Positions 14,882-62,915 of a DNA stretch of 64,000 bases are shown piece by piece. The translations under genes and the position numbers were made by a program. The notes under the pieces were generated by a model that saw nothing but the letters and a program-made list of their open reading frames with translations, did not search any database and was not told the origin of the DNA. Every line of letters begins with the position of its first letter. The stretch's first letter is position 1. This stretch comes from an uncultured Piscirickettsiaceae bacterium (lineage in GTDB: Bacteria > Pseudomonadota > Gammaproteobacteria > GCF-002020875): positions 3,158 through 67,157 of the forward strand of contig CAYQBY010000003.1 of NCBI GenBank assembly GCA_964415865.1, given 5' to 3'.

Positions 14882-14888
14882 ATAATAA

Positions 14889-16643: not shown

Positions 16644-16716
16644 TAAAGCTCTCCTTAAAAAAAGGCTAACCCGAGAATTTATGATTTCCCAGGCTAGCCC
16701 AAATACCACCAGAGTT

Positions 16717-30842: not shown

Positions 30843-31328
30843 ATGAAAGTTACAAAAGACCGAGTCATAACCATTGAGTACAAGATGGTAAATCATAAAG
30901 GAGAGATTATTGATAGCACTGACAACAGTGATGCACTCTCATTCATTCAAGGATATGGATCAGTAATTCCTGCAATTGAGAAACAGATTGAAGGACACCA
31001 CACAGGAGATCGCCTTACTTTTGCTCTTAAACCAACAGATAGTTACGGAGAGAGAGATGAGTCAAAAGTTAAAGTAATACCAAAGAGCCAGTTCAATATG
31101 GATGGTGACCTTCATGTTGGCATGCAATTCTATACCCATAAAAATGGACATGATATTCCTGTCACAATTACTACTATAAATGATCAGCAAATAACCATTG
31201 ATGGAAACCACCCACTAGCTGGTGCTGATATCAATGTTGATCTGGTTATAGTTGATGTACGTGAGGCTATTGATGTTGAACTTGAAAGTGGTGAAGTTCA
31301 AACTGATGAGGATATATTCAATAACTGA
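30843..31328 (+). CDS. slyD: FKBP-type peptidyl-prolyl cis-trans isomerase (SlyD-like)
   Basis: N-terminal FKBP pattern (VITIEYKMVNHKGEIIDST...LSFIQGYGSVIPAIE) with IF insertion. Confidence 0.8.
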   Translation: MKVTKDRVITIEYKMVNHKGEIIDSTDNSDALSFIQGYGSVIPAIEKQIEGHHTGDRLTFALKPTDSYGERDESKVKVIPKSQFNMDGDLHVGMQFYTHKNGHDIPVTITTINDQQITIDGNHPLAGADINVDLVIVDVREAIDVELESGEVQTDEDIFNN

Positions 31329-32287
31329 GCCCTCAACCACTCTCGATCCAATTTCCCCATACTGTTTCGTTTTAATCCAGATACAAACAGCAGTTCTCGT
31401 GGACGCAGACTTGATGAAATATTAGCTCTCATCCATCTGCTTACGATCTCCTCCTGATCTCTCTCACCATCTATAACTGCAACAATACGCTCACCCCACT
31501 CCTTATCAGGAATAGACCCTACCGCCACATCTCTCACCCCTGGTGCAGAGACCATCAACTGCTCTATTACGACAGGATCAATGGTCTCCCCTCCAGAGAT
31601 AATCCGATCATCCAGCCTTCCATAAATATGGAGATGTCCGTCCTTATCCATAGCCCCATGGTCAGCTGTTACAACCTCATCCTCACCCAGTAACAGATTA
31701 CTCCTTATCCTTATCTCACCCTGCTCTCCTATAGCAATAGAGACTCCAGACAGAGGGGCTCCTACATCACTATCATCCCACTGATCTATATTTTCTCTAC
31801 CAAGTCGCAACATGGTGATTCTGGATGCGGTCTCGGTCATCCCATAGGAGACAACAATGGGCCACCCGCTCTCTACTGCACGCTGGGCCAGTGGCTTTGG
31901 CAGACGGTCTCCACCAATCAGTACCGTCTTCAGTGATTCAGGGGCAGGCTTATCTCCGAAGTAATCCAGCAGTTTTGAGAGCATTACAGGTACAAGCGAG
32001 ATATGGGTGATAGTGTAACGCCCTAGATCACCATAAATTCTTTCTGGATAAAAACCCTCATGAAGCAGCATGGTGGCCCCTGCCTCTTCACAACGATATT
32101 TGATAGAGAGTCCGCCAACATGATTTAGGGGAAGACAGTTTAGCCAGCAATCCCCTTTCTGAAGTCTCTCATACTGCTGCCCCATACGAGCACTAGCACG
32201 AAGGGTATCTACGGAGAGGAGAACCTTTTTTGAAATACCTTCAGTACCACTGGTCTCCAGAATGAGGCCTGCTCCATCGGCACTCAT
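31298..32287 (-). CDS. menE: MenE-like acyl-CoA (o-succinylbenzoate) ligase lacking the N-terminal ~110 residues; starts at the P-loop
   Basis: AMP-binding P-loop TSGTEGISKK at residues ~13-22; C-terminal adenylate-forming domain; in-frame stop two codons upstream of the ATG; ATGA overlap with ubiE. Confidence 0.6.
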   Translation of the reverse strand: MSADGAGLILETSGTEGISKKVLLSVDTLRASARMGQQYERLQKGDCWLNCLPLNHVGGLSIKYRCEEAGATMLLHEGFYPERIYGDLGRYTITHISLVPVMLSKLLDYFGDKPAPESLKTVLIGGDRLPKPLAQRAVESGWPIVVSYGMTETASRITMLRLGRENIDQWDDSDVGAPLSGVSIAIGEQGEIRIRSNLLLGEDEVVTADHGAMDKDGHLHIYGRLDDRIISGGETIDPVVIEQLMVSAPGVRDVAVGSIPDKEWGERIVAVIDGERDQEEIVSRWMRANISSSLRPRELLFVSGLKRNSMGKLDREWLRAQLLNISSSV

Positions 32288-33000
32288 TTCTCACCAATAT
32301 GGATAGCGGCAATTCCGAAGGTTAGATTGCTGTAGCTAACATTTGTGAATCCAGCCTGCTCCATCAACCTCTTCATCTCTTCCTGGTCAGGAAAGCGGCG
32401 GATAGATTCCACCAGATAATTGTAGGCAATTGGTGCCTTGGCTATCCATGCACCGAGTCGTGGGATCACATAGAAGGAGTGGAGATCATAAAATGGCTTG
32501 ATCAACCAGTGGGGTCTGGAGAACTCAAGACAATACATTTTCCCACCAGGCTTTAGCACGCGATTTATCTCGCGCAGAGCCTGCTCCATGTTTGTCATAT
32601 TACGGATACCAAAAGAGATGGTAAGACGGTCAACCGAGTTGTCATCCAATGGAATTGACTCCCCTGCTCCCACACGAAACTCCACCCCCTCTATTCCTCT
32701 CCTCTCACCCTCAGCCATCATCGCCTCACTGGGGTCTATAACAATAACTGTTCTCTCACCTGCTGCCATCTTTTCTGCTATATCACCAGTACCTCCAGCA
32801 AGGTCAACTATCAACTCGTTATTCTCTGGACTAACCATCTTTACCAGATGACGCTTCCAGAGACGGTGGATACCGAAACTCATCATATCGTTCATAAGAT
32901 CATAGCGGGGTGCTACTGCCTGAAAAACCGCGCGGATCTTCTCCTCGCGCTCCTGCTCGCCTACCTTTGAAAAACCAAAAGTCTGTGACAGCTTGTCCAT
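32284..33000 (-). CDS. ubiE: Demethylmenaquinone/ubiquinone C-methyltransferase
   Basis: UbiE/MenG signature (YDLMNDMMSFGIHRLWK) and SAM motif (DLAGGTGD). Confidence 0.9.
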   Translation of the reverse strand: MDKLSQTFGFSKVGEQEREEKIRAVFQAVAPRYDLMNDMMSFGIHRLWKRHLVKMVSPENNELIVDLAGGTGDIAEKMAAGERTVIVIDPSEAMMAEGERRGIEGVEFRVGAGESIPLDDNSVDRLTISFGIRNMTNMEQALREINRVLKPGGKMYCLEFSRPHWLIKPFYDLHSFYVIPRLGAWIAKAPIAYNYLVESIRRFPDQEEMKRLMEQAGFTNVSYSNLTFGIAAIHIGEK

Positions 33001-33842
33001 TATCTAATTGCCCCACCAAGATCATAGAGCGTACGGTGCACCCCGTGGCATCGTGCACAGACCGCAACCCCAACCTCACCCAATTTTCGACCAACCCCGC
33101 TGGAGTTTTTAGTAAGCAGAACAGATAGCTCTTCCAACAGAAATTCTGTCTCCTCACCAAGGATACGTTCTCGAGGATATTCGTCACGGTGACAGCCACT
33201 ACAGCTCTCACCCAGATCAATCACCCTAGTTGAGAACAGATCAAGATAATCTGTTGCGGCAGTTATGCGTCCGTCCTCAACTGCAATCTTGAAACGGTTC
33301 ATTGAGGTTGAAAGGTTATTCATTGTATCTTTGTAGGATAGCTCCTCCATGGTTTCACTATCCTCAACCATTACCTTCTCAAAATTTGGGGTTCTGTATA
33401 ACGCCGCAGTCACTGCCCGATAATCATCATGGCATGAACCACAGGTCATACCCACTTTTCTGAGGGCGCCGCCCATGGCCTCCCAATCTCTATCTTTTAT
33501 CACCTGCTCAAGTCGATTTATCCATTTTGGTTCAATCTCGTTACTCCACTCAGGCACCATCTCGGTAATGCTTCTATAGTCCTTGATAAATTGTGAACCC
33601 CACTTATCCAGCAGCTTCTCATTCTGCAGGGCCGTATACTCCTGAATTGCCAGCATGGAACGGCGCAGACGGAACATGGTATGGAGCCATACCTGCCTCT
33701 TATTTTGTGGTTTGTACCACTGAGCGATGGATGTTGGTGGTAGCTGAACTGACATCTCCTGTTCATAACTCTGCGTATCAGCACTGCAAAGTGGTGACAG
33801 AAAGAGTGTGACTGCAATAAAAGCGATATTTTTTATATTCAT
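33000..33842 (-). CDS. Periplasmic tri-heme c-type cytochrome of unknown family, inside the men operon
   Basis: Signal peptide; three CxxCH motifs (CGSCH, CSGCH, CARCH), each at the end of a ~80-aa predicted helical segment. Confidence 0.6.
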   Translation of the reverse strand: MNIKNIAFIAVTLFLSPLCSADTQSYEQEMSVQLPPTSIAQWYKPQNKRQVWLHTMFRLRRSMLAIQEYTALQNEKLLDKWGSQFIKDYRSITEMVPEWSNEIEPKWINRLEQVIKDRDWEAMGGALRKVGMTCGSCHDDYRAVTAALYRTPNFEKVMVEDSETMEELSYKDTMNNLSTSMNRFKIAVEDGRITAATDYLDLFSTRVIDLGESCSGCHRDEYPRERILGEETEFLLEELSVLLTKNSSGVGRKLGEVGVAVCARCHGVHRTLYDLGGAIR

Positions 33843-34714
33843 AGGTAAAGTCCAAATATCATCAAGATTCCAAACAGAAGCTGGAGCTGAGCCGTCTGTG
33901 CCAACAGTTTATTTAATCCTCTACCATGAGGTAAAAGATAGATTTTTCTCCCCAGGTAGAGTGAAACCGGTAGTGCCGGCATCATAACCCATATCAATAA
34001 CGGCTTCTGAAGTTGTTCAGACAAAATCAGAAGTATCAGGAATGGGGTTAATAAAAGTGTGAGATAGAGAACTCTGGTAAGCGACATTCCTAAACCAACT
34101 GCCAGGGTGTTTTTTCCAACAACACGATCAGTATCAATATCTCGATAGTTGTTTACAACTAGAACTGCTGCAGCCAACAGCCCTATCGCGGACCCTGCCA
34201 ATAGAGCTGTAGAGCTCCACTGCAGAGTAACCAGGTAGGTAGTACCCATAACTGCAGCAACACCAAAAAAGAGAAAGACAAATAGCTCTCCCATAAATGT
34301 ATAGGCAATGGGGATGCGGCCTCCAGTATAGGCAAGCCCCGCAGCAATTGATGACAGCCCAATCAACAAGATTGGTAGCCCACCAACCACAACCAGGGAT
34401 ATCCCTATTATAAAAGCTGCTGAAAAAGATCCAATTGCAGCCTTTTTAACACCATTCGCACTCAACAACCCTTCCGAAACCATCCGCTTTGGACCAAGAC
34501 GATCTGGACCATCAGCTCCACGTAGCGCATCCCCAGCATCATTGTATAGATTTGTCCCAACCTGAATCAGAAGAGCCGCCAGAAGAATAAGGGTGAGTAG
34601 CAGAGGTTTAAACAGGGCACTCTCTGTATGAGCTATAACTGCTCCCAGAAGTACCGGAATTACCGCCATTGAGAGGGTTTTTGGACGTACGGCATGTAAC
34701 CATGGGGAGTTCAT
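33839..34714 (-). CDS. menA: 1,4-dihydroxy-2-naphthoate polyprenyltransferase (UbiA family)
   Basis: UbiA-family NDAGD motif; 8-9 TM helices. Confidence 0.85.
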   Translation of the reverse strand: MNSPWLHAVRPKTLSMAVIPVLLGAVIAHTESALFKPLLLTLILLAALLIQVGTNLYNDAGDALRGADGPDRLGPKRMVSEGLLSANGVKKAAIGSFSAAFIIGISLVVVGGLPILLIGLSSIAAGLAYTGGRIPIAYTFMGELFVFLFFGVAAVMGTTYLVTLQWSSTALLAGSAIGLLAAAVLVVNNYRDIDTDRVVGKNTLAVGLGMSLTRVLYLTLLLTPFLILLILSEQLQKPLLIWVMMPALPVSLYLGRKIYLLPHGRGLNKLLAQTAQLQLLFGILMIFGLYL

Positions 34715-34812
34715 AAACAGCTGCTCTTGATCTGAATCAACACCGTCTCAGTCTCGCATTTGGTAAGATTGTCCGCAAGTAACACCTTCATAATAATCTA
34801 CAATTTACCTCT

Positions 34813-35160
34813 ATGAAAAAAAGCTACCTTATACTCTGTTTTGCACTACTAACAGCACCAGTTCACGCTGTCAGTGACCATCAACTTGAGAAGGTAAAAC
34901 AGTTGGGGGAGCTCAACGGGATTGCTCTTAATTGTGGATATATTGATGAGACCCGCAGAATGAAACGAGCTATGGTATCAACTGTCCCCAAGATCAGGGT
35001 TATTGGGATAGCTTTTGATGAGGCAACTAACAGCTCCTTTCTCTCAACAATCAAATCGGGAAATTCATGTCCTACAGAGAAGTCACTTAGCCAACAGGTT
35101 GACAGCAGTATTGAGCAGTTGGAAACAGTATTTATGAATCATCAGGAGAAACTATTTTGA
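34813..35160 (+). CDS. Small secreted protein, unknown
   Basis: Signal peptide; 115 aa; ATGA-coupled to the downstream fusion gene. Confidence 0.4.
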   Translation: MKKSYLILCFALLTAPVHAVSDHQLEKVKQLGELNGIALNCGYIDETRRMKRAMVSTVPKIRVIGIAFDEATNSSFLSTIKSGNSCPTEKSLSQQVDSSIEQLETVFMNHQEKLF

Positions 35161-36587
35161 GGCTGCTCTCCCTATTTGTACTGCTCATCTTCTCCTCAAC
35201 CACATGGAGTGGCGAGCCTCTCAGGATTGTTACCACCATAAAACCAATTCATTCAATCCTCTCTGGTCTACTGGCAGGGACACGGCCTCCCGAACTACTT
35301 GTAGATAATCAGCAATCACCATATACAGTAACTCTCTCAAGATCCAAGCAACATACCATCAGGGATGCTGATATGGTCGTATGGGTGGGGCCAGAACTGG
35401 AGCAGTTTATGGTTAAGCAGATAGAACAGCTTGGCCCGAAGACAACCCTCTTTACCCTGCTTGATAATGAAGAGATCAAGGTTCTTCAGTCACGCTGGAA
35501 CAAGGGGAAACGTGATCCATTCTTATGGCTTGATAGCCGCAACATACTTATCCTTACTGATGAGCTTTTCAGAGCACTAATCAAGCTTGATCCAGAGCGC
35601 AGATCTCTATATGAAAATAACCGACGCAACCTGTTAAGCAGACTGGCAGAACTTGACCGCCGCCTGGAGTATGGATACAGAGGGCTGAAGAGCGGTATTG
35701 GCATGGCCTACTACGATACCTTGCAGTATTTTGAACAGGCATATGCACTAAAAATCAGGGGGGTGGTTGCAGAGTCACCAACAACACCAGTTAGTGGACT
35801 CTCTTTTCTACAGAGCAGGGCCAAACTCAAAAGTGGTGACTATAGCTGTCTGTTGACTGAACAGCAGATCGATCCTGATGACTTATCTCTGCTTACCAAT
35901 GAGATCACACTCAATATTGGTCTTTTGGACAGTTTTGGATCAAAAATAGATGCTGGAGAAGATCACTACTTCAAATTGATGGAGCAGAATACAGCTACTA
36001 TCAAACAGTGCTTAAAGTACGTGGATGATTCAATTGCAGAGGAGGTAGCAAAAGAGGTCATCCAAAACAGCACCAGTAATTCCACCACAACCAGCTATAT
36101 TGGTGGCAAGTTCATGTTACGTGATCATCACGGTAAACTATTTACCGACCAGGATATGCTGGGGGCATTCCATCTGGTCTACTTTGGATATACCTTCTGT
36201 CCTGATGTCTGCCCCACCTCACTACTCACCATCTCCTCAGCACTGAACAAACTTGGGGATGATGCCAAACAGATCCAGCCATACTTCATAACGGTTGACC
36301 CAGCCAGAGACAGACCAGAGGCGCTAAATACCTATGTTAACTATTTTCACCCGACCCTGATTGGACTAACTGGCACTCAGTCCATGATTGACCGGGTTGC
36401 CCGAATGTATCATGTGAAGTATGAGAAGGTTATTGACGAATCAAGAGACCCTGATCAATACATCATGGATCACTCATCAGGGGTTTTTGTGATGGCGCCC
36501 AGTGGAGAGTTCATAACTAAATTAGCTCACGGAATATCAGCTGATGATATGGCTGCCCGCATCAGAGATGTCCTGTCAAAACAATAG
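35157..36587 (+). CDS. Fusion protein: degenerate ZnuA/TroA-like periplasmic solute-binding domain plus a C-terminal SCO1/SenC copper-chaperone domain
   Basis: N-terminal TroA fold pattern with two canonical metal-binding His replaced (DPFLWLD for DPHxWLD; YDTLQYF for HDAFGYF); C-terminal CPDVCP CxxxC motif and conserved DHSSGVFV His. Confidence 0.65.
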   Translation: MRLLSLFVLLIFSSTTWSGEPLRIVTTIKPIHSILSGLLAGTRPPELLVDNQQSPYTVTLSRSKQHTIRDADMVVWVGPELEQFMVKQIEQLGPKTTLFTLLDNEEIKVLQSRWNKGKRDPFLWLDSRNILILTDELFRALIKLDPERRSLYENNRRNLLSRLAELDRRLEYGYRGLKSGIGMAYYDTLQYFEQAYALKIRGVVAESPTTPVSGLSFLQSRAKLKSGDYSCLLTEQQIDPDDLSLLTNEITLNIGLLDSFGSKIDAGEDHYFKLMEQNTATIKQCLKYVDDSIAEEVAKEVIQNSTSNSTTTSYIGGKFMLRDHHGKLFTDQDMLGAFHLVYFGYTFCPDVCPTSLLTISSALNKLGDDAKQIQPYFITVDPARDRPEALNTYVNYFHPTLIGLTGTQSMIDRVARMYHVKYEKVIDESRDPDQYIMDHSSGVFVMAPSGEFITKLAHGISADDMAARIRDVLSKQ

Positions 36588-36639: not shown

Positions 36640-36927
36640 ATGAGCAGCAACCAACCCATAGCCATTGTCGATGTGCGTGGACTAAAGTGTCCCGAACCTT
36701 TCAGGCAGGCTACATCAACAGCTATGGCACTACCACCAGGGGGGTCATTCCAACTCCACATCTCTGTTGAACCACAGCCACTCTATGAGCACCTCAATGA
36801 ACTTGGGTTTACCATTCACCCAGAAACAGCGTCTGATGGTGATTTTCTGATCACCATAACCGCACCTGATAATCCTGTTGAAAATAGCGAAGAGATACTG
36901 AAGAGCAGACCAATCTGCATCTCCTGA
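36640..36927 (+). CDS. TusA-like sulfurtransferase
   Basis: VDVRGLKCPEP CPxP motif; 95 aa. Confidence 0.7.
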   Translation: MSSNQPIAIVDVRGLKCPEPFRQATSTAMALPPGGSFQLHISVEPQPLYEHLNELGFTIHPETASDGDFLITITAPDNPVENSEEILKSRPICIS

Positions 36928-37629: not shown

Positions 37630-38214
37630 CTACTTTACCCCGTTGGATATCAGGAACTGACCCAGCTCCTTATCAGTGCGTACGATATGGTCAAGTAGCC
37701 ACTCCTTCAGGAAGTGGTGAATCTCTGTGCTGAGATCCTCCTGGTCATCCAGATTACCTGTATGTTGACCACTAAAGGTCTCTACCTTCTCCACCATATC
37801 CCTATGCTGCTTCATGTGCGCATCTATATCTGGCCAGTTGTTATCTCTCATCAACCCCTCCTCGCGCTCGAAATGGTATTTGGTATATTCGATCAATTCA
37901 TCAATAACACCCTTCACATACCCCTCACCCATATTGTAATGGGAGGCACTAACAACCTGATTCAACAGTCCAACCAGCTTTTGGTGATCATGATCAATTA
38001 ACTCCACCCCAACCTCATACTGGCTATTCCAATCTATATACTCCTTACGCACACTGCGTTCATGAAGATATGGAATCAATGCCAGAATAACCAATATTAC
38101 CCACGGAACAGGATTGGCCAGACCAGCCTCAGATGTAACAAACCCCAGAAAGACGACCACTAACGCAACGATGATCAGTGAGAACAGTGCGAACATCGAG
38201 TAACTTTTTTTCAT
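37630..38214 (-). CDS. Membrane-anchored hemerythrin-like protein
   Basis: N-terminal TM helix; HHE cation-binding pattern (HDHQKLV...H...H..E...H...D). Confidence 0.7.
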   Translation of the reverse strand: MKKSYSMFALFSLIIVALVVVFLGFVTSEAGLANPVPWVILVILALIPYLHERSVRKEYIDWNSQYEVGVELIDHDHQKLVGLLNQVVSASHYNMGEGYVKGVIDELIEYTKYHFEREEGLMRDNNWPDIDAHMKQHRDMVEKVETFSGQHTGNLDDQEDLSTEIHHFLKEWLLDHIVRTDKELGQFLISNGVK

Positions 38215-38282: not shown

Positions 38283-38296
38283 TTGATGTGTATCAA
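38283..38296. promoter_or_regulatory. FNR/Dnr-type box TTGAT-GTGT-ATCAA
   Basis: Perfect palindrome ~75 bp upstream of both the hemerythrin/c4 operon (minus) and dnr (plus). Confidence 0.7.
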
Positions 38297-38367: not shown

Positions 38368-39054
38368 ATGTCTATATCCACTGTTTTTGAGCGCGAGCTT
38401 CGCCGCTCCCCACTATTTTCCTCTCTATCCAAAGAGGCCATGGAAGATATTATAGACTCATCCGAACTTATCAGAAAAAAACCTAATGAGGTTCTGTTTC
38501 TGCAGGGAGATGCCGCTACCCATTTCTATGTTGTACGGACCGGCACCATTAGACTCTACCTGCTTACTCCAGATGGCGATGAAAAAACCGTAAATATCCT
38601 GCAGGCCGGCAACTCTTTTGCTGAGGCAATGGTGTTTATGGATGGCGGCAAATACCCAGTCAACAGCCAGTTTCTAGAGGACGGAGAGATATTCTCCTTC
38701 AACAGTAAGGTATACAAAAATATCATGCGCACAGATCCTGAAACAACCTTCTCGATCATGGCCGATCTTAGTATGCGACTACAGAACTACGTGCAGGAGA
38801 TCGAGCAGCTCTGCCTGCATAATGCCACCCACAGACTAATGAGTTACCTGCTTACCTTTATTCCTGCCGAGGACAATGAGGGAACCTTTCAATTACCAAC
38901 CCAAAAAAGCGTCATTGCGTCCAGACTCTCAATTCAGAGAGAGACCTTCTCGCGCATTCTTGGAAAACTGAAAAAGAGAAAGATGATTGATGTTAATGGC
39001 AACGAGGTTCATATCCTCGATGCTAAAATGATGCGCAGCGCTCTAGTTGATTGA
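38368..39054 (+). CDS. dnr: CRP/FNR-family transcriptional regulator, Dnr/NnrR-type
   Basis: cNMP-binding domain plus C-terminal HTH; no N-terminal Cys cluster. Confidence 0.75.
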   Translation: MSISTVFERELRRSPLFSSLSKEAMEDIIDSSELIRKKPNEVLFLQGDAATHFYVVRTGTIRLYLLTPDGDEKTVNILQAGNSFAEAMVFMDGGKYPVNSQFLEDGEIFSFNSKVYKNIMRTDPETTFSIMADLSMRLQNYVQEIEQLCLHNATHRLMSYLLTFIPAEDNEGTFQLPTQKSVIASRLSIQRETFSRILGKLKKRKMIDVNGNEVHILDAKMMRSALVD

Positions 39055-39402
39055 TACCACACTAATGTTCCCAACCATCTCAGGATGTGGGCCACATAGA
39101 TAACTATAGACCCCCTCTTGGGTGAAAGTATGTTCCCAGCTCTCCCCGGGAAAGAGATACTCTGACCCAACCAGATCACCTCCACCATAACCATTCAGTT
39201 TTACTGAATGATACTGCCTCTTCTCATGGTTGACCCAGCGTACTGTATCACCAGGATTGATCGTCACAGTTTGCGGTTGGTATCTGTAATCAATAATCTC
39301 AACCTCAACCACCCTTGGTTGAGGTATATCATTCGAACATCCTGACACAAAAAAAAGGCCTCCCAGCAGAAGCATGAGAGGCCTGTTATTAATCATTGTC
39401 AT
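39043..39402 (-). CDS. Blue-copper cupredoxin (amicyanin/plastocyanin-like) lipoprotein
   Basis: Lipobox FFVSGC; type-1 Cu ligands H..., CGPHPEM (C-x2-H-x2-M as in amicyanin). Confidence 0.7.
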   Translation of the reverse strand: MTMINNRPLMLLLGGLFFVSGCSNDIPQPRVVEVEIIDYRYQPQTVTINPGDTVRWVNHEKRQYHSVKLNGYGGGDLVGSEYLFPGESWEHTFTQEGVYSYLCGPHPEMVGNISVVSIN

Positions 39403-39403: not shown

Positions 39404-41095
39404 TCACCATTTTACAGCATTGATCTCCGCTTTTGGATTGTCAAATCCGAGCTTGTAACCAAATGAGACATGGTGGAAGCGTCCATTTGTATAGTCATCG
39501 TGGATGGCGAAACCAAAGTTATAGACCTGGTCCAGTACCAGAGTTAGGTCATCTACATCACCAGAACTGAGCTTGCGCTTCATATCTACCACCCAGTTAC
39601 CCTGATCATCTCTCTTGCCCTCAAACTCAAGGTCACCACTATTACCACTCATATCACGATCAGCAAGTATCATTCCATCCTCAGCCTGCTTACTACCCGA
39701 CTTGTAGCGCACAAGATCCATGATCTTTTTCTGATCCAGTGCCGCCTTAATCTCTTCAGGCTTTCTCAGCTTGTCCCAGCCACCACGCTTCTTGCCACGA
39801 CGCCCCTTCACCTCAATCTTGGTACGTGACTCCTTGGTGTATTTGGTTACATCTGTACCCTCTGGCTGATGAGGCATACCGTTGGCATCATGGTGACAAG
39901 TTCCCCAACAACCTGCTCTATCCGCAAACTCAACCTCATCTGTAGCAAACATCATTGCCAGCTTGACAGGGTTCTCAGGATCCATCCGCTCAGAATCTGC
40001 AACTGGCTTATACTCTGTTGCTTCATTATGGTGGGCAACATCATGCCAGATAAACCGCATATATAGATTCTCACCATCATGTGCGGCCTTCACCATCACC
40101 GGGATTCCACCTCGCTTGCCAGGAATTGGAGTGGGCTCCATCGCCTTCTCATGCTTTCCACCAACAATACGGTCACCCATAACCTTGGCCTCTTTATCAT
40201 GACAGGTAAAGCATCTATCTCCACCCTTTTTAAAGGCATTTGCCCCACCATGATCTGTTCCATTAAGCACCCACTCTATGGATGTCTGTCCAGGATAGAT
40301 AACATAGATCTCTCTCCCTACAATAGATGACCAATCACCAGCCTTGGCTGATGCTGCCGCCTTGGCTGCTGCCTCAGCTGCCGCCTTCTCTGCTGCGGCT
40401 TTGGCTGCTGCCGCCGCCACTGGATCAAGATCAGCAAGCTGGAACAGTTTTGCCCCAGGTTTCGCCAGTGACTCGTCAGGGGCCTCCATAGCCTCCTTCT
40501 CCTCATCACTCAACAGCTTATGAACCCCTTTGTGCGCAACACCCTTATGACAGTCAATACAGGTCTGTCCCGATCTAAGAGCATTGGTATGTTGATTCAT
40601 AGCACGAGGTTTCTGCATGTCTCCATTCATAGCCTCAAAATTGTGGCAGTTCCGACACTCTCTGGAATCGGTACTCTTCATCGAACGCCATACATTTTTT
40701 GCCAACTGCAGACGTTTCGCATCAAACTTTTCAGGGGTATCAATAGTCCCCAGCACTTTATGCAACACCTCGTTACTGGCCTGAATCTTTCTGGCTACCT
40801 TATGTACCCATGGATCAGGTACATGACAATCCGAACAGGTTGCCCGTACTCCAGTACGATTCGCATAGTGGATAGTCTTCTGGTACTCCTTGTAAACATT
40901 GTCCTCCATCTCATGACATGAGATACAGAACTCAAGAGTATTGGTAACCTCCATTGCCGTATTGAATCCACCCCAGAAGATAATTCCAAACAGGGCAAAA
41001 ACCAGGCCTCCTCCAAGTGTCGTATTGAGGATCAAACGACGTGAGAACATCAACTTCATTCTCTCTTTGAAACTTGGTCTCTCAGGAATTGGCAT
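39404..41095 (-). CDS. nirT: NapC/NirT-family membrane tetraheme cytochrome fused to a ~370-aa C-terminal periplasmic domain with additional heme motifs
   Basis: N-terminal TM anchor plus four CxxCH (CISCH, CSDCH, CRNCH, CIDCH); Ala/Lys-rich linker; then CFTCH and CWGTCH; start chosen at MPIPERPS so that the nirS1 terminator is not included. Confidence 0.7.
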   Translation of the reverse strand: MPIPERPSFKERMKLMFSRRLILNTTLGGGLVFALFGIIFWGGFNTAMEVTNTLEFCISCHEMEDNVYKEYQKTIHYANRTGVRATCSDCHVPDPWVHKVARKIQASNEVLHKVLGTIDTPEKFDAKRLQLAKNVWRSMKSTDSRECRNCHNFEAMNGDMQKPRAMNQHTNALRSGQTCIDCHKGVAHKGVHKLLSDEEKEAMEAPDESLAKPGAKLFQLADLDPVAAAAAKAAAEKAAAEAAAKAAASAKAGDWSSIVGREIYVIYPGQTSIEWVLNGTDHGGANAFKKGGDRCFTCHDKEAKVMGDRIVGGKHEKAMEPTPIPGKRGGIPVMVKAAHDGENLYMRFIWHDVAHHNEATEYKPVADSERMDPENPVKLAMMFATDEVEFADRAGCWGTCHHDANGMPHQPEGTDVTKYTKESRTKIEVKGRRGKKRGGWDKLRKPEEIKAALDQKKIMDLVRYKSGSKQAEDGMILADRDMSGNSGDLEFEGKRDDQGNWVVDMKRKLSSGDVDDLTLVLDQVYNFGFAIHDDYTNGRFHHVSFGYKLGFDNPKAEINAVKW

Positions 41096-41127
41096 GGATA
41101 GCTCCCCAGGCAATACAAATAAGTTAT

Positions 41128-41162
41128 ATAAAAAAGCCGGCACCTGATATGCAGGTGCCGGC
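41128..41162 (-). terminator. Rho-independent terminator downstream of nirS copy 1
   Basis: GCCGGCACCTG-atatg-CAGGTGCCGGC stem followed by a T-run on the minus strand. Confidence 0.75.
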
Positions 41163-41173: not shown

Positions 41174-42808
41174 TTAGGTTACGTGGTTAGTTCTACTGTA
41201 AACGTTGAACTTACCAGTTGGTGTGGTCAGTCCCTTGATACGAGCCTTCTCTTCAAGAGTGTCCGCATCATAGACTACGATCTCACCAGTTGGGTTACCG
41301 TTATCAGTACGGTTCCAGACAGAGACCCAGGCCTCACTTCCATCCTTGTTAAACTCAATATGGAGTGCCGCCTTACCCTTCTCTTCAGTTACACGGATGG
41401 TCTTAACGATCTCACCGGTCTCCTTGGAGATAACCTGTACAGACTGCTGGATCTCAGGCTCAGGATTCTTGACCTGATCTGCCCATACGTACTTGGAGTT
41501 TGGATGAGTACGGATAAACGCACCTGCTCCATCAGTCTCGATCTCACGTACGATCTTCCACGCCTTGCTTGGTGTACCAGCTGGATCATTACCCCATACG
41601 GTTACCATGCCTGTTCCCAGATGGACTGTAGCACCTACAGGACCATGCTTTGGATCATCCCAGTTTGCACCAGGACCAGGGTGTGGCTTCTTGCCAGTGG
41701 TATCAATCATCGCCTCAAGCTTGCGGGTCTTGGTATCAACTACAACCATCTTGTTGGATGCATTTGCCGCAATCTGGAAGTAACGTCCGGTTGGATCAAA
41801 GAATCCATCATGAAGATATTTAGCTGAATCAATCTTGGTGATTCGAAGATTCTCGATATCAGTGTAGTCAACCTGCCACATCTGTCCCAGCTCCTTGACC
41901 GCAACCAGGAAGGTTGGCTCGTTTGGAGTGGTGTAGACCGCAGCTACGCGTGACTCATTTACATATTCACCATCAACATTTACCCCGCGAGTGGATACTA
42001 CCTTCAGCGGCTCCATGGTCTTGGCATCAGCAATTACGAAGTGTGGTGGCCAGTAGCCTCCACCAATTACATATTTACCGTCACCAGAGATTGCAACATC
42101 ACGTGCATCGTATGCAATCTGGGTCTTGGCAACCAGCATGCTTCCTGGCTGTTGCCATAGATCGATCTTACTCATTACACCATCACGACCCATTGTGTAC
42201 CAGAAACGTCCGGCAACACCATTCTCTGGGTGCTCAGTCTCATGATGCTCAGTGGCCTTGATTACGTGTACTGCATAACCAGTATCAATATGGTCGATAA
42301 TCTCTTTGGTATCACCATCGATTACTGCTGCCTTACCGGCATCACGCTCGATTACTACGAAGAAGTTCTCCCAATTGCGGCCATGCAGTGGCTTGGTTGG
42401 ATAGTCCTTAGGATCGACAAATACCTCTGTGCGCTCCTTCATCATAGCCAGTGACATCTCTGGTGGAACTGGTGGCTCCAACTGGATGTAGGTGGCCATC
42501 ATTGAGATCTCTTCTTTACTGAAAATATCATCAAAGTTGTTCATTCCACCGTCTGTTCCGTAAGTCAGGATCTTCTCTAGACGCTCCTGACCTAGTTCAC
42601 GAGTATTTTTTGGCTCCAGGCTCTTGCCTGTCGCTCCCTTTCTCAGTACACCGTGACAACCTGCACAGCGTTGGAAATAGAGCTTCTTGGAGTGCTCAAA
42701 ATCCGCCTCTGATAGTGATGGCTCAGCACTTACTGTAGTACCGACCCCGCCCATTGCAACACCCACTGCAAGACTTAACGCAGTCAATGATAATTTCTTC
42801 ATATTCAT
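41174..42808 (-). CDS. nirS: Cytochrome cd1 nitrite reductase NirS, copy 1 (Sec signal peptide, soluble periplasmic)
   Basis: Signal peptide MKKLSLTALSLAVGV...; c-heme CAGCH; d1 eight-bladed propeller sequence; start taken at MNMKK. Confidence 0.92.
   Translation of the reverse strand: MNMKKLSLTALSLAVGVAMGGVGTTVSAEPSLSEADFEHSKKLYFQRCAGCHGVLRKGATGKSLEPKNTRELGQERLEKILTYGTDGGMNNFDDIFSKEEISMMATYIQLEPPVPPEMSLAMMKERTEVFVDPKDYPTKPLHGRNWENFFVVIERDAGKAAVIDGDTKEIIDHIDTGYAVHVIKATEHHETEHPENGVAGRFWYTMGRDGVMSKIDLWQQPGSMLVAKTQIAYDARDVAISGDGKYVIGGGYWPPHFVIADAKTMEPLKVVSTRGVNVDGEYVNESRVAAVYTTPNEPTFLVAVKELGQMWQVDYTDIENLRITKIDSAKYLHDGFFDPTGRYFQIAANASNKMVVVDTKTRKLEAMIDTTGKKPHPGPGANWDDPKHGPVGATVHLGTGMVTVWGNDPAGTPSKAWKIVREIETDGAGAFIRTHPNSKYVWADQVKNPEPEIQQSVQVISKETGEIVKTIRVTEEKGKAALHIEFNKDGSEAWVSVWNRTDNGNPTGEIVVYDADTLEEKARIKGLTTPTGKFNVYSRTNHVT
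41178..42721. repeat. Direct repeat unit A (1544 bp, 100% identical to 42890..44433), mature nirS coding region
   Basis: Identical spurious ORFs in the six-frame track at a constant +1712 offset; base-by-base boundaries checked. Confidence 0.95.
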
Positions 42809-42843
42809 AGTTCTCCTAAACAAAACAAAAAACCTCCTCTTGT

Positions 42844-42876
42844 AAAAAACCCCTTTAGCCAATCAGGTTAAAGGGG
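42844..42876 (-). terminator. Rho-independent terminator downstream of nirS copy 2
   Basis: CCCCTTTA-loop-TAAAGGGG stem followed by TTTTTT on the minus strand. Confidence 0.7.
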
Positions 42877-42885: not shown

Positions 42886-44643
42886 TCAAGTTACGTGGTT
42901 AGTTCTACTGTAAACGTTGAACTTACCAGTTGGTGTGGTCAGTCCCTTGATACGAGCCTTCTCTTCAAGAGTGTCCGCATCATAGACTACGATCTCACCA
43001 GTTGGGTTACCGTTATCAGTACGGTTCCAGACAGAGACCCAGGCCTCACTTCCATCCTTGTTAAACTCAATATGGAGTGCCGCCTTACCCTTCTCTTCAG
43101 TTACACGGATGGTCTTAACGATCTCACCGGTCTCCTTGGAGATAACCTGTACAGACTGCTGGATCTCAGGCTCAGGATTCTTGACCTGATCTGCCCATAC
43201 GTACTTGGAGTTTGGATGAGTACGGATAAACGCACCTGCTCCATCAGTCTCGATCTCACGTACGATCTTCCACGCCTTGCTTGGTGTACCAGCTGGATCA
43301 TTACCCCATACGGTTACCATGCCTGTTCCCAGATGGACTGTAGCACCTACAGGACCATGCTTTGGATCATCCCAGTTTGCACCAGGACCAGGGTGTGGCT
43401 TCTTGCCAGTGGTATCAATCATCGCCTCAAGCTTGCGGGTCTTGGTATCAACTACAACCATCTTGTTGGATGCATTTGCCGCAATCTGGAAGTAACGTCC
43501 GGTTGGATCAAAGAATCCATCATGAAGATATTTAGCTGAATCAATCTTGGTGATTCGAAGATTCTCGATATCAGTGTAGTCAACCTGCCACATCTGTCCC
43601 AGCTCCTTGACCGCAACCAGGAAGGTTGGCTCGTTTGGAGTGGTGTAGACCGCAGCTACGCGTGACTCATTTACATATTCACCATCAACATTTACCCCGC
43701 GAGTGGATACTACCTTCAGCGGCTCCATGGTCTTGGCATCAGCAATTACGAAGTGTGGTGGCCAGTAGCCTCCACCAATTACATATTTACCGTCACCAGA
43801 GATTGCAACATCACGTGCATCGTATGCAATCTGGGTCTTGGCAACCAGCATGCTTCCTGGCTGTTGCCATAGATCGATCTTACTCATTACACCATCACGA
43901 CCCATTGTGTACCAGAAACGTCCGGCAACACCATTCTCTGGGTGCTCAGTCTCATGATGCTCAGTGGCCTTGATTACGTGTACTGCATAACCAGTATCAA
44001 TATGGTCGATAATCTCTTTGGTATCACCATCGATTACTGCTGCCTTACCGGCATCACGCTCGATTACTACGAAGAAGTTCTCCCAATTGCGGCCATGCAG
44101 TGGCTTGGTTGGATAGTCCTTAGGATCGACAAATACCTCTGTGCGCTCCTTCATCATAGCCAGTGACATCTCTGGTGGAACTGGTGGCTCCAACTGGATG
44201 TAGGTGGCCATCATTGAGATCTCTTCTTTACTGAAAATATCATCAAAGTTGTTCATTCCACCGTCTGTTCCGTAAGTCAGGATCTTCTCTAGACGCTCCT
44301 GACCTAGTTCACGAGTATTTTTTGGCTCCAGGCTCTTGCCTGTCGCTCCCTTTCTCAGTACACCGTGACAACCTGCACAGCGTTGGAAATAGAGCTTCTT
44401 GGAGTGCTCAAAATCCGCCTCTGATAGTGATGGTCCGGATGCAGCCACCTTGGCTGGTGCTGCTGGGGCTGGAGCAGGGGCTGGTGCCGCTGCTGGAGCT
44501 GGTGCTGGTGCTGGTGCTGGTGCTGCAGTTTTTGATGCACCTGAATCACCAGAGTCACCACACCCTGATAATCCCAGAGTCATGACTATTGCCAGACTCA
44601 GGGTTGCACCCTTCTTGAAACTCCTCTTCTTACCATCGATCAT
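42886..44643 (-). CDS. nirS: Cytochrome cd1 nitrite reductase NirS, copy 2, lipoprotein form with a Pro/Ala-rich linker
   Basis: Lipobox LGLSGC followed by (PA)n linker; then identical to copy 1 from SLSEADFEH to the C-terminus. Confidence 0.9.
   Translation of the reverse strand: MIDGKKRSFKKGATLSLAIVMTLGLSGCGDSGDSGASKTAAPAPAPAPAPAAAPAPAPAPAAPAKVAASGPSLSEADFEHSKKLYFQRCAGCHGVLRKGATGKSLEPKNTRELGQERLEKILTYGTDGGMNNFDDIFSKEEISMMATYIQLEPPVPPEMSLAMMKERTEVFVDPKDYPTKPLHGRNWENFFVVIERDAGKAAVIDGDTKEIIDHIDTGYAVHVIKATEHHETEHPENGVAGRFWYTMGRDGVMSKIDLWQQPGSMLVAKTQIAYDARDVAISGDGKYVIGGGYWPPHFVIADAKTMEPLKVVSTRGVNVDGEYVNESRVAAVYTTPNEPTFLVAVKELGQMWQVDYTDIENLRITKIDSAKYLHDGFFDPTGRYFQIAANASNKMVVVDTKTRKLEAMIDTTGKKPHPGPGANWDDPKHGPVGATVHLGTGMVTVWGNDPAGTPSKAWKIVREIETDGAGAFIRTHPNSKYVWADQVKNPEPEIQQSVQVISKETGEIVKTIRVTEEKGKAALHIEFNKDGSEAWVSVWNRTDNGNPTGEIVVYDADTLEEKARIKGLTTPTGKFNVYSRTNHVT
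42890..44433. repeat. Direct repeat unit B (1544 bp, identical to 41178..42721)
   Basis: As above. Confidence 0.95.
44458..44530. repeat. Simple-sequence repeat (GCTGGT/GCTGGG)n encoding the Pro-Ala linker of lipoprotein NirS
   Basis: gctggggctggagcaggggctggtgccgctgctggagctggtgctggtgctggtgctggtgctg. Confidence 0.85.
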
Positions 44644-44864: not shown

Positions 44865-44878
44865 TTGATATGAATCAA
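44865..44878. promoter_or_regulatory. FNR/Dnr-type box TTGAT-ATGA-ATCAA upstream of nirE
   Basis: Perfect consensus FNR palindrome ~40 bp upstream of the probable nirE start (44915). Confidence 0.65.
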
Positions 44879-52076: not shown

Positions 52077-53159
52077 CTATCTCATCCCGCGACGAGCAGC
52101 ATAGGTTACAAACAGGGTTATAGTAAAGAGTGCCACGGCACCTGCCTGATGAGTTGATGCCAGATGAATTGGAACAACCAACAACAGTGTACTAATTCCA
52201 AGAGCGACCTGTATCAGAACCATTACCATCAGTGCATTCATTCCGCTGCGGGCATATTTTGACAGCTCTACCTGTCGATATCGGAACCAGATAATTATGG
52301 TTGCTATCAATACGGTAATTGCCAACAGGCGGTGGTCAAACTGTACTGTAGTTCTGTTTTCAAAGATGTTGATCCAGAATGGGCTCTCCCTGAATAGTCC
52401 ATCAGGAATATACATTCCATTCATATCGGGGAAGGTATTGTAGCCATACCCTGCCTTGAGACCTGCAACAAACCCACCCGAAAGGATAGTGATTACAATC
52501 AGAAGAGTCAGCCAGCGTGACGTCCTGTATAGGTTGGCCGAGACCTCTCTCTCCATTCTAAATTTGGCATTGGGAAACAGATAGCCAAGCGCGGTCCAGA
52601 ACAGGTATGCATAGATAAGGAATGCTGCTGCAAGATGCGCAGTCAGACGGTACTGGCTGACATGAGGATTATCAATCAACCCGCTCTTGACCATATACCA
52701 ACCCAACACCCCCTGAAGACCACCAAGAATAAACATCAGAATAAACCGTGGAATGGCCGAACGCTGAATCTTGCCAGAGACCCAAAAGTAGATGAATGGC
52801 AACAGGAAGGCAAGGCCGATCAGGCGGCCCAAAACCCTGTGCAGATACTCCAGCAGGAAAATTGATTGAAAACCTGCCAGATCCATCCCCATATTGATTT
52901 TCTGGTACTCGGGGGATTGGCGATAGAGCTCAAAAACACGTTCCCACTCCAGCTGGGTCAGTGGCGGAATCCAACCCATTAGCGGATCCCAATCCACCAT
53001 TGAGAGGCCAGAGCCGGTCAGACGGGTAACTCCACCAAGCACCACCATTGCATAGATAAGAAGACAAACAGCAAGGAGCCAGATCCCGATCTGGCGATTG
53101 TGACTATATTCTGAAAGAGAGCTATACACTGCTATCTGTCTCCACAGCTTTCCTGTCAC
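52077..53159 (-). CDS. ctaA: Heme A synthase, COX15/CtaA type 2 (no Cys pairs)
   Basis: Eight TMs with conserved His (HRVLG, HLAAAF, HRLLAI). Confidence 0.75.
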   Translation of the reverse strand: MTGKLWRQIAVYSSLSEYSHNRQIGIWLLAVCLLIYAMVVLGGVTRLTGSGLSMVDWDPLMGWIPPLTQLEWERVFELYRQSPEYQKINMGMDLAGFQSIFLLEYLHRVLGRLIGLAFLLPFIYFWVSGKIQRSAIPRFILMFILGGLQGVLGWYMVKSGLIDNPHVSQYRLTAHLAAAFLIYAYLFWTALGYLFPNAKFRMEREVSANLYRTSRWLTLLIVITILSGGFVAGLKAGYGYNTFPDMNGMYIPDGLFRESPFWINIFENRTTVQFDHRLLAITVLIATIIIWFRYRQVELSKYARSGMNALMVMVLIQVALGISTLLLVVPIHLASTHQAGAVALFTITLFVTYAARRGMR

Positions 53160-54027
53160 CGGTCAGGGAAAAGTAGATCAGCAGAGCCGTTATCAGCAGT
53201 TGGGAGAATGTAGAGTGGAGCGATGTAGCAACCAGTGGAAGTTGCCCCTCAACCATGAAGCCACCAAGCTTGGTCTGTACAAACAGCAACAACAGCAAGA
53301 TCAATAGAAAGTTTCTCTGACCAGCATCCCCTCTCCTGAAGGCACGAAGCAGCATTACAGAAAAGTAGAGCAGTGCAACAAGAGCTGAGAACCTGTGCAT
53401 CATATGCATCTGTATTAGAGGGTTTTCTGACCACCAATATCCATTGCAGTCAGGCAGTGTTGTACAGGCCATCCCTGCAAATTTGGCAGAAACCATCCCA
53501 CCCTGCATTAACATGGTAAGCAGCAGCATGGCACCGGCTAGCATTACCGCCCTCTGTAGTGAAAACCGCTGCTCCCAACCAAAAACTCTAGCCATAAGCA
53601 GGGCAGATGCACCTAACAGAACCATTCCACCCAGAAGATTACCCATAACAACCCACAACTCAAGTGATCCACCTGCTGCTATCCCAAGTCCGGCTAGCCA
53701 CAATACGGCACCACCCATGACCACAGCGTACTGCCTTAATCTTGCAGCACCCTCTCCAGCACGAATCAGTACAATATTTACCAACAATACAAGTATGGCA
53801 ATAACACCAGCCAGGGTACGGTGGGCAATGGTTGCAAAGTGATATTCACCCTCAGCAACACCGGCAAAACCCTTGGCCTCACCAGTGACTCCAACCTCAC
53901 CATAACAGAGTGGCCGTTCCACACACTCCAGTCCGGACTTTACATGTCTGATATATGAGCTGGTGAAATTAAGGGTAACCACCAGCAGAACAGTTATTAC
54001 AACCAGATAGCGGATATTAAGCCCCAT
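53122..54027 (-). CDS. ctaA: Heme A synthase-like protein, CtaA type 1 (Cys pairs in loops)
   Basis: Eight TMs; CVERPLC and CTTLPDC loop cysteine pairs; His in TM2 and TM6. Confidence 0.65.
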   Translation of the reverse strand: MGLNIRYLVVITVLLVVTLNFTSSYIRHVKSGLECVERPLCYGEVGVTGEAKGFAGVAEGEYHFATIAHRTLAGVIAILVLLVNIVLIRAGEGAARLRQYAVVMGGAVLWLAGLGIAAGGSLELWVVMGNLLGGMVLLGASALLMARVFGWEQRFSLQRAVMLAGAMLLLTMLMQGGMVSAKFAGMACTTLPDCNGYWWSENPLIQMHMMHRFSALVALLYFSVMLLRAFRRGDAGQRNFLLILLLLLFVQTKLGGFMVEGQLPLVATSLHSTFSQLLITALLIYFSLTGDRKAVETDSSV

Positions 54028-59324: not shown

Positions 59325-60149
59325 TTATTTGCGTCGATTGATTACAAACTCCTTGATCAGGAAATAGACTCCAATGGAAATAATCATGAAACCAATAAAC
59401 ATACTGACAAAAATCGAGTAATCAAACCTATAACCCCCGCTGGCAGGGTCATATACCGTACAGAAAAAGCGAACACGATCCTCTATGTTTGCAACAATTC
59501 CTCTATTAGTGGGCCGCTTGTAGACCAACTCCTTGAGTGGCTCCATAATCAGTGGCGCATCGTATGATTCCCCATATACCTGGGTATATATTTTGCCTTT
59601 TTGATCAACAACAGTGGCCTGCAGAATATGGTCAAAACCCTTGGTTGTTCTGATATAGGTAAAACCAACATCATTCATAAACCTTTCGACACTGCTGGCA
59701 TCCCCGCTCAAAAAATACCAGTTATCCAGATCAATTCTTCTTAATTTTGCATAATCCTCCATCATCTCTGGACTATCAATCATGGTGTCAAAACCGAGAG
59801 TGATGACATTAAATTTGTCAGAACCGAGTGATTCAGTGGCTATCTCGACCATCTTTTTAAGATGTTCGGTAGTCATCTGACAGATATGGTAACAACTGGT
59901 GTATACCAAATTAACTATTAACGGCTTATTGCGAAAACTTTCCAGGTGAACTGGCATCCCATTAATATCAGTGAATGTATAGTCTGATAGTATGTTACCA
60001 ACTGCCCCTCTGCTCTTTTCAAGTGCTGAGGCATGGTCAAAAACACCCTCCTCTACATCTGCAGAGAACGATATCTGGGAAATACCCAAAAGCAGAAAAA
60101 ACAGAGCTGCCGTAGAGAACCACAGACTGACATCTAGCCATTTATACAC
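59325..60149 (-). CDS. senC: SCO1/SenC copper chaperone with N- and C-terminal membrane segments
   Basis: CYHIC CxxxC motif; conserved FDHIL His. Confidence 0.75.
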   Translation of the reverse strand: MYKWLDVSLWFSTAALFFLLLGISQISFSADVEEGVFDHASALEKSRGAVGNILSDYTFTDINGMPVHLESFRNKPLIVNLVYTSCYHICQMTTEHLKKMVEIATESLGSDKFNVITLGFDTMIDSPEMMEDYAKLRRIDLDNWYFLSGDASSVERFMNDVGFTYIRTTKGFDHILQATVVDQKGKIYTQVYGESYDAPLIMEPLKELVYKRPTNRGIVANIEDRVRFFCTVYDPASGGYRFDYSIFVSMFIGFMIISIGVYFLIKEFVINRRK

Positions 60150-62902: not shown

Positions 62903-62915
62903 TATTAATTACCCC

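Follow-up and report, generated by a model that had tools for sequence, protein, structure and literature searches.

The fusion gene and its two domains

The 64,000-nucleotide stretch of contig CAYQBY010000003.1 analysed here (the window), from an uncultured Piscirickettsiaceae bacterium, is a denitrification island that contains a clade II-type nos cluster, menaquinone genes, narGHJI, narK, narXL and a pair of overlapping genes, encoding a small secreted protein and a fusion of a ZnuA-like domain with a SCO domain. The fusion open reading frame (ORF), at 35157..36587 on the plus strand, starts with TTG and runs uninterrupted for 476 amino acids (aa) plus a stop codon, as the first-pass annotation of this DNA had placed it. 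Its TTG at 35157 overlaps the TGA stop codon of the small gene (34813..35160, plus strand) in the sequence TTGA, and an AGGAG Shine-Dalgarno sequence, read at 35143..35147 within the 3' end of the small gene, lies 9 nucleotides (nt) before it. This start codon is supported by the overlap, by the AGGAG site and by a signal peptide common to the homologues. The translational coupling to a small secreted protein, claimed earlier, agrees with the overlapping codons and with the signal peptide that the small protein carries.

The fusion begins with a Sec-type signal peptide (aa 1-19, MRLLSLFVLLIFSSTTWSG; 35157..35213) as read from the sequence, presumably cleaved and without a lipobox; a lipobox-like motif occurs in just 2 of the 72 members of the fusion family. 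A domain of the ZnuA/TroA fold follows (aa 24-285; 35226..36011), assigned by Pfam, by fold and by alignment to ZnuA structures, and then a variable, disordered linker (aa 286-315; 36012..36101) and a SCO1/SenC domain of the thioredoxin fold (aa 316-476; 36102..36584). Both Pfam matches are full-length and far above threshold, in line with the two domains first proposed: ZnuA (PF01297) covers aa 24-285 and profile positions 1-263 of 263 (E=4.8e-36, 125 bits against a cut-off of 29), and SCO1-SenC (PF02630) covers aa 316-452 and positions 1-134 of 134 (E=8.5e-46, 155.7 bits against 22.8). The motifs quoted for the two domains are present as well: DPFLWLD (aa 120), YDTLQYF (inside AYYDTLQYF, aa 184), CPDVCP (aa 348) and DH (aa 438-439). 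An AlphaFold2 model built with 72 homologues has a mean predicted local distance difference test (pLDDT) score of 87.1, with two well-folded domains and a disordered linker at 292-313, where pLDDT falls below 50 at 292-294 and 304-313. Across the family the linker measures 18-30 aa and its mean pairwise identity is 0.125.

More than 120 protein clusters carry the fusion, and both Pfam domains are found in all of the best 120 (46-100% identity, ~460-500 aa). Among their sources are Sedimenticola thiotaurini and Thiolapillus brandeum, both with complete genomes, and the endosymbiont of the tubeworm Ridgeia. A stop codon or frameshift that separates the two domains is thereby excluded: the fusion is genuine, and is neither a frameshift nor an assembly artefact. 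The database labels of its homologues are generic, either 'SCO family protein' or 'metal ABC transporter solute-binding protein, Zn/Mn family'. Our literature searches found no paper on the ZnuA-SCO fusion, on the family of its small partner or on the proteobacterial SCO lineage tied to clade II nos; the search on the fusion or on SCO in nosB/G/H clusters gave a sole match, Heylen & Keltjens 2012.

The SCO domain is a regular member of its family, and the first-pass description of it as complete was correct. It matches human SCO1 and the ScoI of Bradyrhizobium japonicum with E values of about 1e-32, and Foldseek superposes it on the Cu-bound Arabidopsis thaliana ScoI (6n5u) with a template modelling (TM) score of 0.93 and on 1wp0 and 4wbj with scores of 0.86-0.91. 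It combines the PF02630 profile, the thioredoxin-like fold and the copper ligands of SCO proteins, that is, the CxxxC motif C348-P-D-V-C352 (36198-36212) and the distal His, H439 (codon 36471-36473); C348, C352 and H439 are invariant in 72/72 family members. The N-terminal transmembrane anchor that is typical of SCO proteins, though not universal among them, is missing, and the signal peptide and the ZnuA-like domain stand before the SCO domain instead. Unfused SCOs of the group that is associated with the small partner also have cleavable-looking signal peptides. A neighbour-joining tree of SCO domains groups all partner-associated SCOs, fused and unfused.

A second, stand-alone senC had been noted in the haem-copper operon of the window, and it is indeed there, at 59325..60149 on the minus strand within a COX2-COX1-CtaB-like operon. 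It is very divergent, with the motif CYHIC and 24% identity to the fusion SCO domain over 58 aa, so that the two are barely alignable. Since the haem-copper operon has its own and very different SCO, the fusion would be free to serve another client. The operon as a whole (57668-63458, minus strand) consists of a small COX2 (180 aa), COX1, a CtaB-like prenyltransferase, the SCO and then a cytochrome b-ferredoxin-FlpD fusion, a layout that resembles the senC-bearing clusters of the sNOR/qCuANOR type (PMC3475470).

A lost metal site and a constant two-Cys partner

The ZnuA-like domain has the fold of the cluster A-I solute-binding proteins (SBPs) and fails the features that define them as metal binders. 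The PF01297 match and a Foldseek comparison of the modelled domain with Escherichia coli ZnuA (TM 0.85-0.90) both point to two lobes joined by a backbone helix. In a residue-level alignment to the E. coli and Salmonella ZnuA structures, none of the three His ligands is left: E59-H60 becomes P55-Y56 (Y56 codon 35322-35324), H143 becomes F122 (35520-35522) and H207 becomes Y186 (35712-35714). The Asp of LDPLG is retained as D258 (35928-35930), and the His-rich loop of ZnuA is absent. The metal site of this cluster consists of three His, or of His/His/Glu, together with Asp, and D258 is all that is kept of it. The first-pass annotation was right about a TroA fold with lost His, and it undercounted the loss, which affects three of three ligands and not two of three. 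The scores of the fusion against the NCBIfam equivalog models agree with this picture, being 105 against a cut-off of 268 bits for ZnuA (NF007091), 70 against 350 bits for AztC (NF040870) and likewise far below the cut-offs for Mn-binding proteins.

Among the 72 family members, position 56 is Tyr in 45 and Phe in 23; position 122 is Phe in 42, Tyr in 26 and His in 3; position 186 is Tyr in 55, Phe in 15 and His in 2. Because these replacements swap Tyr and Phe freely, the canonical ZnuA site is abolished and not remodelled. A remodelled Tyr/Tyr/His/Asp site, like that of ferric-binding proteins, was considered and dropped as a conserved feature, given the exchange with Phe and the 7/72 members that have Tyr at none of the three positions. 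H32, D258 and M275 are conserved in the fusion family. H32 was ruled out as a new ligand, since the canonical H-H-H relatives conserve it equally, along with P55 and the Cys pair (C231, C285); all of these residues are inherited and not new.

An exhaustive search with the ZnuA-like domain alone, followed by ligand typing of 150 matches, identified H-H-H-D ligands in 121/150 of the nearest representatives. The nearest canonical relatives are stand-alone proteins of ~300 aa, 31-35% identical, with H-H-H-D ligands. The loss of ligands is graded, since deeper-branching fusions still keep the third His, and a few stand-alone ZnuA-like proteins are partly degenerate (P0249, P0256, P0258, P0264). The mean pairwise identity within the fusion family is 0.568 for the ZnuA-like domain and 0.609 for the SCO domain, both far above that of the linker, and ~30 positions are at least 85% conserved in the degenerate group alone, with the signature residues K108, R119, R128, R168, E171-Y-G-Y-R-G176, Q194 and S259. 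Judged from these alignments, the ZnuA-like domain is under selection nearly as strong as that on the SCO domain, despite the loss of its three-His site. Confidence in the monomer model is low for two of its conserved segments, 171-180 and 191-200. No gene for an ATP-binding cassette (ABC) permease or ATPase of the ZnuBC type adjoins the fusion in any locus with annotated neighbours, a partner elsewhere in the genome being possible, and ZnuBC-type, PCuAC and TlpA genes are absent both from the 64-kb window and from the positions adjoining the fusion in other loci.

The small partner is a protein of 115 aa with a signal peptide and a predicted four-helix bundle. Its family has 517 detectable members, all of them 'hypothetical', and it has no known relatives: no Pfam family was found for the 66 members scanned, profile searches of the PDB gave 0 matches by sequence, and the best Foldseek match had E=2.5. 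The family is marked by the motif LGxLNGxALxC and by the invariant residues G32, N35, G36, A38, L39, C41, P59, K60, G65, F68, T72 and C86 (C41 codon 34933-34935; C86-P87 codons 35068-35073). The AlphaFold model (pLDDT 87.8, core ~97) has helices at 22-41, 44-57, 62-82 and 89-106, with C41 at the end of helix 1 and C86-P87 in the loop preceding helix 4; from this topology, both Cys are predicted to sit at the same end of the bundle. Two possible identities were ruled out. The label DUF3718, given to one UniRef entry, has no match in the 66 members, and NosP/NosQ are confined to clade I clusters and have no signal peptides (bioRxiv 10.64898/2025.12.16.694761).

Genome-wide retrieval was dominated by stand-alone SCOs, with ~8 full-length fusions among the 80 loci kept. 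With a profile hidden Markov model, the small gene or domain was found directly upstream of SCO in 29/29 loci of one SCO group and in 0 of ~58 other SCO loci fetched in the same scan. It occurs in four architectures. In the first, a separate small gene overlaps or adjoins a stand-alone SCO with a signal peptide (Dechloromonas L056 and L092, Sulfuricellaceae L037, and L093); in the second, small domain, linker and SCO form a single ORF in frame (L025, L031, L032, L045, L048); in the third, found in the window and in 15 further loci, the small gene precedes a ZnuA-like-SCO fusion; and in the fourth, it precedes a stand-alone degenerate ZnuA-like protein with no SCO (L090). The small protein is thus the constant element, and SCO and the pseudo-SBP both occur as its partners. 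The five in-frame loci are Rosetta-stone fusions that support a link between the small protein and SCO. At one further locus (L091, 1868-4333), a stand-alone, partly degenerate ZnuA-like gene with Q-Y-H at the three ligand positions overlaps the end of a DsbD_TM/CcdA gene, itself preceded by a DsbA-like gene, an arrangement that suggests a thiol-redox connection for the pseudo-SBP module.

Gene neighbourhood and possible clients

The nos cluster of the window contains nosZ with a CuA motif, c-type cytochromes and nosB, D, G, H, F, L and Y, and nosZ lies 25 kb from the pair. Genes for a dihaem cytochrome c, a hemerythrin, a Crp/Fnr regulator, a cupredoxin and a NirT-EB_dh fusion, two nirS, the haem d1 genes and the COX2-COX1-CtaB-SCO operon are also present. 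Elsewhere the pair is found directly upstream of nosZ (L004/L005), directly after nosY (L011) or nosY-UbiA (L088), divergent from nosZ and beside nirS (L089), or beside nirS or nirF (L009, L010, L086), and in the window, too, it adjoins a nirS cluster. Unfused pairs of small gene and SCO stand beside clade II nos in L037 and L093. The closest unfused SCOs by distance (L067, L017 and L012, then L015, L021 and L060) all lie beside clade II nos clusters. These six come from alphaproteobacterial metagenome-assembled genomes and are 44-55% identical to the SCO domain of the window; three are divergent from nosZ and three are downstream of nosY and a cytochrome c gene. In L017 (8354-9892), the nosY-cytochrome c genes are separated from the nos-linked SCO by a gene that is SUMF1 (formylglycine-generating-enzyme)-like by motifs read by eye. 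Placement directly beside nosZ or nosY is repeated, with several different gene orders, in three classes of proteobacteria.

The intergenic region between menA and the small gene contains a perfect FNR/DNR-type box (TTGATCTGAATCAA, 34727..34740), ~80 nt before the ATG of the small gene. The window has 3 perfect boxes of the form TTGAT-N4-ATCAA against 0.16 expected, a number reached in 0/100 shuffles; the other two (38283-38296 and 44865-44878) are likewise in intergenic regions of denitrification genes, and the last overlaps the called start of a nirE-like gene, which is possibly miscalled. With at most one mismatch allowed, a box occurs upstream of the small gene in 6/32 related loci against ~0.66 expected. 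Promoter and terminator scans around the pair gave results at chance level. The gene that follows the fusion (36640..36927, plus strand) had been called TusA-like; the gene is present, and it belongs to DUF2249 (PF10006, E=2.2e-12), its TusA match being below threshold. As no terminator is predicted in between, it may be co-transcribed with the fusion. A DUF2249 homologue was found in none of the related loci and follows the fusion in this window alone, and its membership in the system is doubtful because it is not conserved with the pair.

Taken together, the pair may constitute a soluble, periplasmic Sco-type copper chaperone or thiol-disulfide system for denitrification cuproenzymes, most likely for the CuA site of NosZ, a reading to which we give an even chance of being right. 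The small protein, the ZnuA-like domain and the SCO domain would be exported by Sec, as their signal peptides indicate, and the operon would be expressed with the denitrification genes through the FNR/DNR box. By homology and invariance, the SCO domain probably binds copper via C348, C352 and H439. The Cys pair of the small protein would probably either pass Cu(I) to the CxxxC/His site of SCO or keep that site reduced, as the fusions and the invariant Cys suggest, a role that would resemble in function that of PcuC/TlpA in bacteria and of Cox17/COA6 in mitochondria on Sco. The ZnuA-derived pseudo-SBP would take the place of the SCO membrane anchor and act as a docking or scaffold module, probably without binding metal; this role is proposed because of the ligand loss, the strong constraint, the group-specific residues and the conserved segments of low model confidence. 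The client would be a soluble periplasmic cuproprotein of denitrification, which the gene neighbourhood suggests is most likely the CuA of the clade II, Sec-exported NosZ, or alternatively the small cupredoxin of the nirS cluster.

The first-pass annotation had envisaged copper delivery or redox chemistry for the CuA/CuZ enzymes. The CuA part fits the gene neighbourhoods. CuZ is an unlikely client, because its assembly is assigned to NosL and NosDFY (PMC6530538, PMC7558416); should NosZ be the target, its plausible site is CuA. In Paracoccus denitrificans, deletion of senC2 or pcuC lowers N2O reduction at low Cu, according to section 6.4 of a review (PMC7558416), and a senC paralogue lies within the clade II nos cluster of Bacillus azotoformans (PMC3475470).

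Several observations weigh against this assignment. Work on clade I indicates that NosL and NosDFY deliver all of the NosZ copper (PMC8457098; bioRxiv 10.64898/2025.12.16.694761, section 9), so that a SCO is perhaps unneeded for CuA. In about one third of the loci the pair has unrelated surroundings, as in S. thiotaurini (L001/L087) and T. brandeum (L003), and in Dechloromonas (L056, L092) it lies within a cobalamin gene cluster. The enrichment of nos/nir neighbours relative to the other fetched SCO loci is not significant (10/29 against 10/60, Fisher p=0.10), which is due in part to the nearest of these 'other' SCOs being nos-linked themselves. Finally, strict monophyly of the partner-associated SCOs was recovered in 13/100 bootstraps, the commonest intruders being the six nos-linked unfused SCOs. 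A robust SCO phylogeny was dropped on this value, and we do not claim a single origin of the partnership.

A more specific version of the chaperone reading is rather doubtful, with a modest chance of proving correct. The small protein, the pseudo-SBP and the soluble SCO might form an unrecognised three-module periplasmic machine that assembles the CuA of clade II NosZ, in which the pseudo-SBP, turned from metal binding to protein docking, would hold apo-NosZ or dock to the Nos maturation complex and the small protein would be a copper or electron donor like Cox17/COA6.

The same chaperone chemistry could instead serve another client, either a haem-copper oxidase or NO reductase (CuA/CuB) or the type-1 cupredoxin of the nirS cluster (39043..39402), and this we consider unlikely. 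The classical clients of SCO proteins are cytochrome oxidases (PMC6669012, PMC6696091), the pair is nearer to the nirS-cupredoxin cluster than to nosZ both in the window and in L086, and its surroundings in some genomes are unrelated. However, the haem-copper operon of the window has a dedicated SCO, the cleavable-looking signal peptides and missing membrane anchors of the group's SCOs suit a soluble client, and the adjacency to nosZ/nosY is recurrent.

It is quite unlikely that the system is purely redox, with SCO as a periplasmic thiol-disulfide oxidoreductase or in peroxide defence and not as a copper donor. It might then keep the Cys of an apo-cuproprotein or cytochrome reduced during anaerobic respiration, with the small 2-Cys protein as redox partner. 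The thioredoxin fold of SCO would allow this, redox roles of Sco proteins have been discussed (PMC6307045, PMC6946597), the two Cys are the only invariant reactive residues of the small partner, and at L091 translational coupling joins a stand-alone degenerate ZnuA-like gene to DsbA-like and CcdA/DsbD_TM genes. Nevertheless, His439 and the DH motif are invariant together with CxxxC, and the closest matches of the domain are bona fide copper-binding SCO1/ScoI. Moreover, the two roles are compatible, as the ScoI of B. japonicum binds Cu and is a TlpA substrate (PMC6669012).

Uptake of the kind performed by AdcA, in which the ZnuA-like domain would be the SBP of an ABC importer encoded elsewhere, with non-canonical ligands, and SCO would assist in metal capture as ZinT does in AdcA, for instance in copper import, is very unlikely. 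There is precedent for a ZnuA-type domain joined to a second metal-binding domain, AdcA itself being among the structural matches (7jj9, 7jj8), and the conservation of H32, D258 and M275 and of the third His in the deep-branching fusions also speaks for it. Against this, every typed fusion lacks at least two of the three His, the ligand positions alternate between Tyr and Phe with some members Tyr-less there, H32, P55 and D258 were inherited from canonical relatives and not newly gained, and annotated neighbourhoods contain no adjoining permease or ATPase gene. The small partner and the nos linkage, in addition, track the SCO module even where the ZnuA-like domain is missing. It is highly improbable that the ZnuA-like domain has no function and survives as a decaying evolutionary relic that just spaces or solubilises SCO, for although its canonical ligands have been lost in a graded manner, its identity nearly equals that of SCO, many positions are conserved in the degenerate group alone, and stand-alone degenerate versions persist, one of them still paired with the small protein.

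Other features of the window and of the related loci deserve mention. Two tandem nirS genes (41174-42862 and 42886-44643, both on the minus strand) encode proteins that are 100% identical over 515 aa and differ at their N-termini alone; the starts of the DNA repeat are 1712 nt apart, and the two copies stem either from a very recent tandem duplication or from an assembly artefact. Beside the cupredoxin and nirS lies a gene for a NapC/NirT tetrahaem cytochrome fused to EB_dh (PF09459, ethylbenzene-dehydrogenase-like; 39404-41143, minus strand), a fusion that L086 and L089 share. Next to the DUF2249 gene are those for a hemerythrin (37630-38214, minus strand) that has a hydrophobic segment at its N-terminus and for a dihaem cytochrome c, both conserved in L086. 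Between ubiE and menA, a gene at 33000-33842 (minus strand) encodes a protein of 280 aa that has three CxxCH motifs and whose C-terminus gives a cytochrome c'-like match, and it is conserved beside the pair in L086 and L089. The menaquinone genes form two blocks (10896-16259 and 31298-34714), and several genomes (L004, L037, L088) show them in linkage with clade II nos clusters and with the pair, which would fit menaquinol-dependent electron input through NosGH. A DsrC-like gene directly downstream of narI (16269-16709, minus strand) points to a sulfur-oxidising host, and two adjoining CtaA/COX15 paralogues are found at 52077-54027 (minus strand), one a strong match and the other a weak one (E=2.8e-18).

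The cobalamin clusters of Dechloromonas that enclose the pair (L056, 7512-9518; L092, 5220-6943) contain two BtuF-like (Peripla_BP_2) genes, and genes for a TonB-receptor, FecCD and Peripla_BP_2 lie beside the pair in L088 (9464-13638). N2O inactivates B12, and a link between the pair, N2O and B12 is conceivable.

Significance and comparison with known systems

The metallation of CuA in nitrous oxide reductase is unsettled, above all for the Sec-exported clade II enzymes, which are N2O sinks, and papers on clade I conflict on the roles of NosL and of Sco/PCuAC. A soluble, partner-bearing SCO lineage that recurs beside clade II nos is a concrete and testable candidate for CuA assembly, and some hosts of the pair, Sedimenticola and Dechloromonas, are culturable. 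If the proposed role is true, the CuA of NosZ would have a new assembly route. The ZnuA-like domain provides a clean case of an SBP fold without its ligand site and yet under strong selection. Our results also define an unannotated family of ~500 small proteins, whose link to SCO is backed by the Rosetta-stone fusions.

Compared with SCO1/SenC/ScoI proteins (human SCO1, B. japonicum ScoI Blr1131, PrrC/SenC), the fusion domain has the full-length PF02630 match, a thioredoxin-like fold with TM scores of 0.86-0.93, the CxxxC and His ligands and 35-40% identity to the SCOs of solved structure. Unlike them, the fusion has a cleavable-type signal peptide and a 260-aa ZnuA-like domain in place of the transmembrane anchor, an obligate small helical partner with two Cys, which is undescribed for SCO proteins, and genomic ties to clade II nos and nirS and not to cytochrome oxidase genes. 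With ZnuA/TroA/AztC, the N-terminal domain shares the two alpha/beta lobes joined by a long backbone helix, a Cys pair of the disulfide type, the DPxxWLD and xDxxxYF frames and the Asp of LDxxG. It differs from them in that the three-His site has become Tyr/Phe, Phe/Tyr and Tyr/Phe, in having neither a His-rich loop nor an adjoining ZnuBC, and in its signature of an Arg-rich set and EYGYRG. The streptococcal AdcA is similar in design, being a cluster A-I SBP with a C-terminal metal-handling domain (ZinT) on a flexible linker (7jj9, 7jj8). However, both domains of AdcA bind Zn and serve an ABC importer, whereas in the fusion the SBP site is lost and the second domain is of the copper chaperone type.

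The likeness of the small partner to PcuC/PCuAC, TlpA, Cox17 and COA6 is a functional analogy only: these are small soluble proteins that supply Cu(I) to Sco or reduce it (PMC6669012, PMC6946597), and Cox17 and COA6 are, like the partner, small, helical and Cys-based. By Pfam, PDB and Foldseek searches, the partner is unrelated to all of them in sequence or fold; its predicted four-helix bundle contains a single Cys pair, and neither the His/Met motif of PCuAC nor the CxxC thioredoxin fold of TlpA is present. The nos-linked SenC paralogues, that is, the senC upstream of nosC3 in B. azotoformans (PMC3475470) and senC2 of P. denitrificans (PMC7558416, section 6.4), are stand-alone and membrane-bound, contain no ZnuA-like domain and have no reported small partner. 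In both of them, as in the fusion clade and its nearest relatives, a SCO protein is tied to the genes or phenotypes of N2O reductase.

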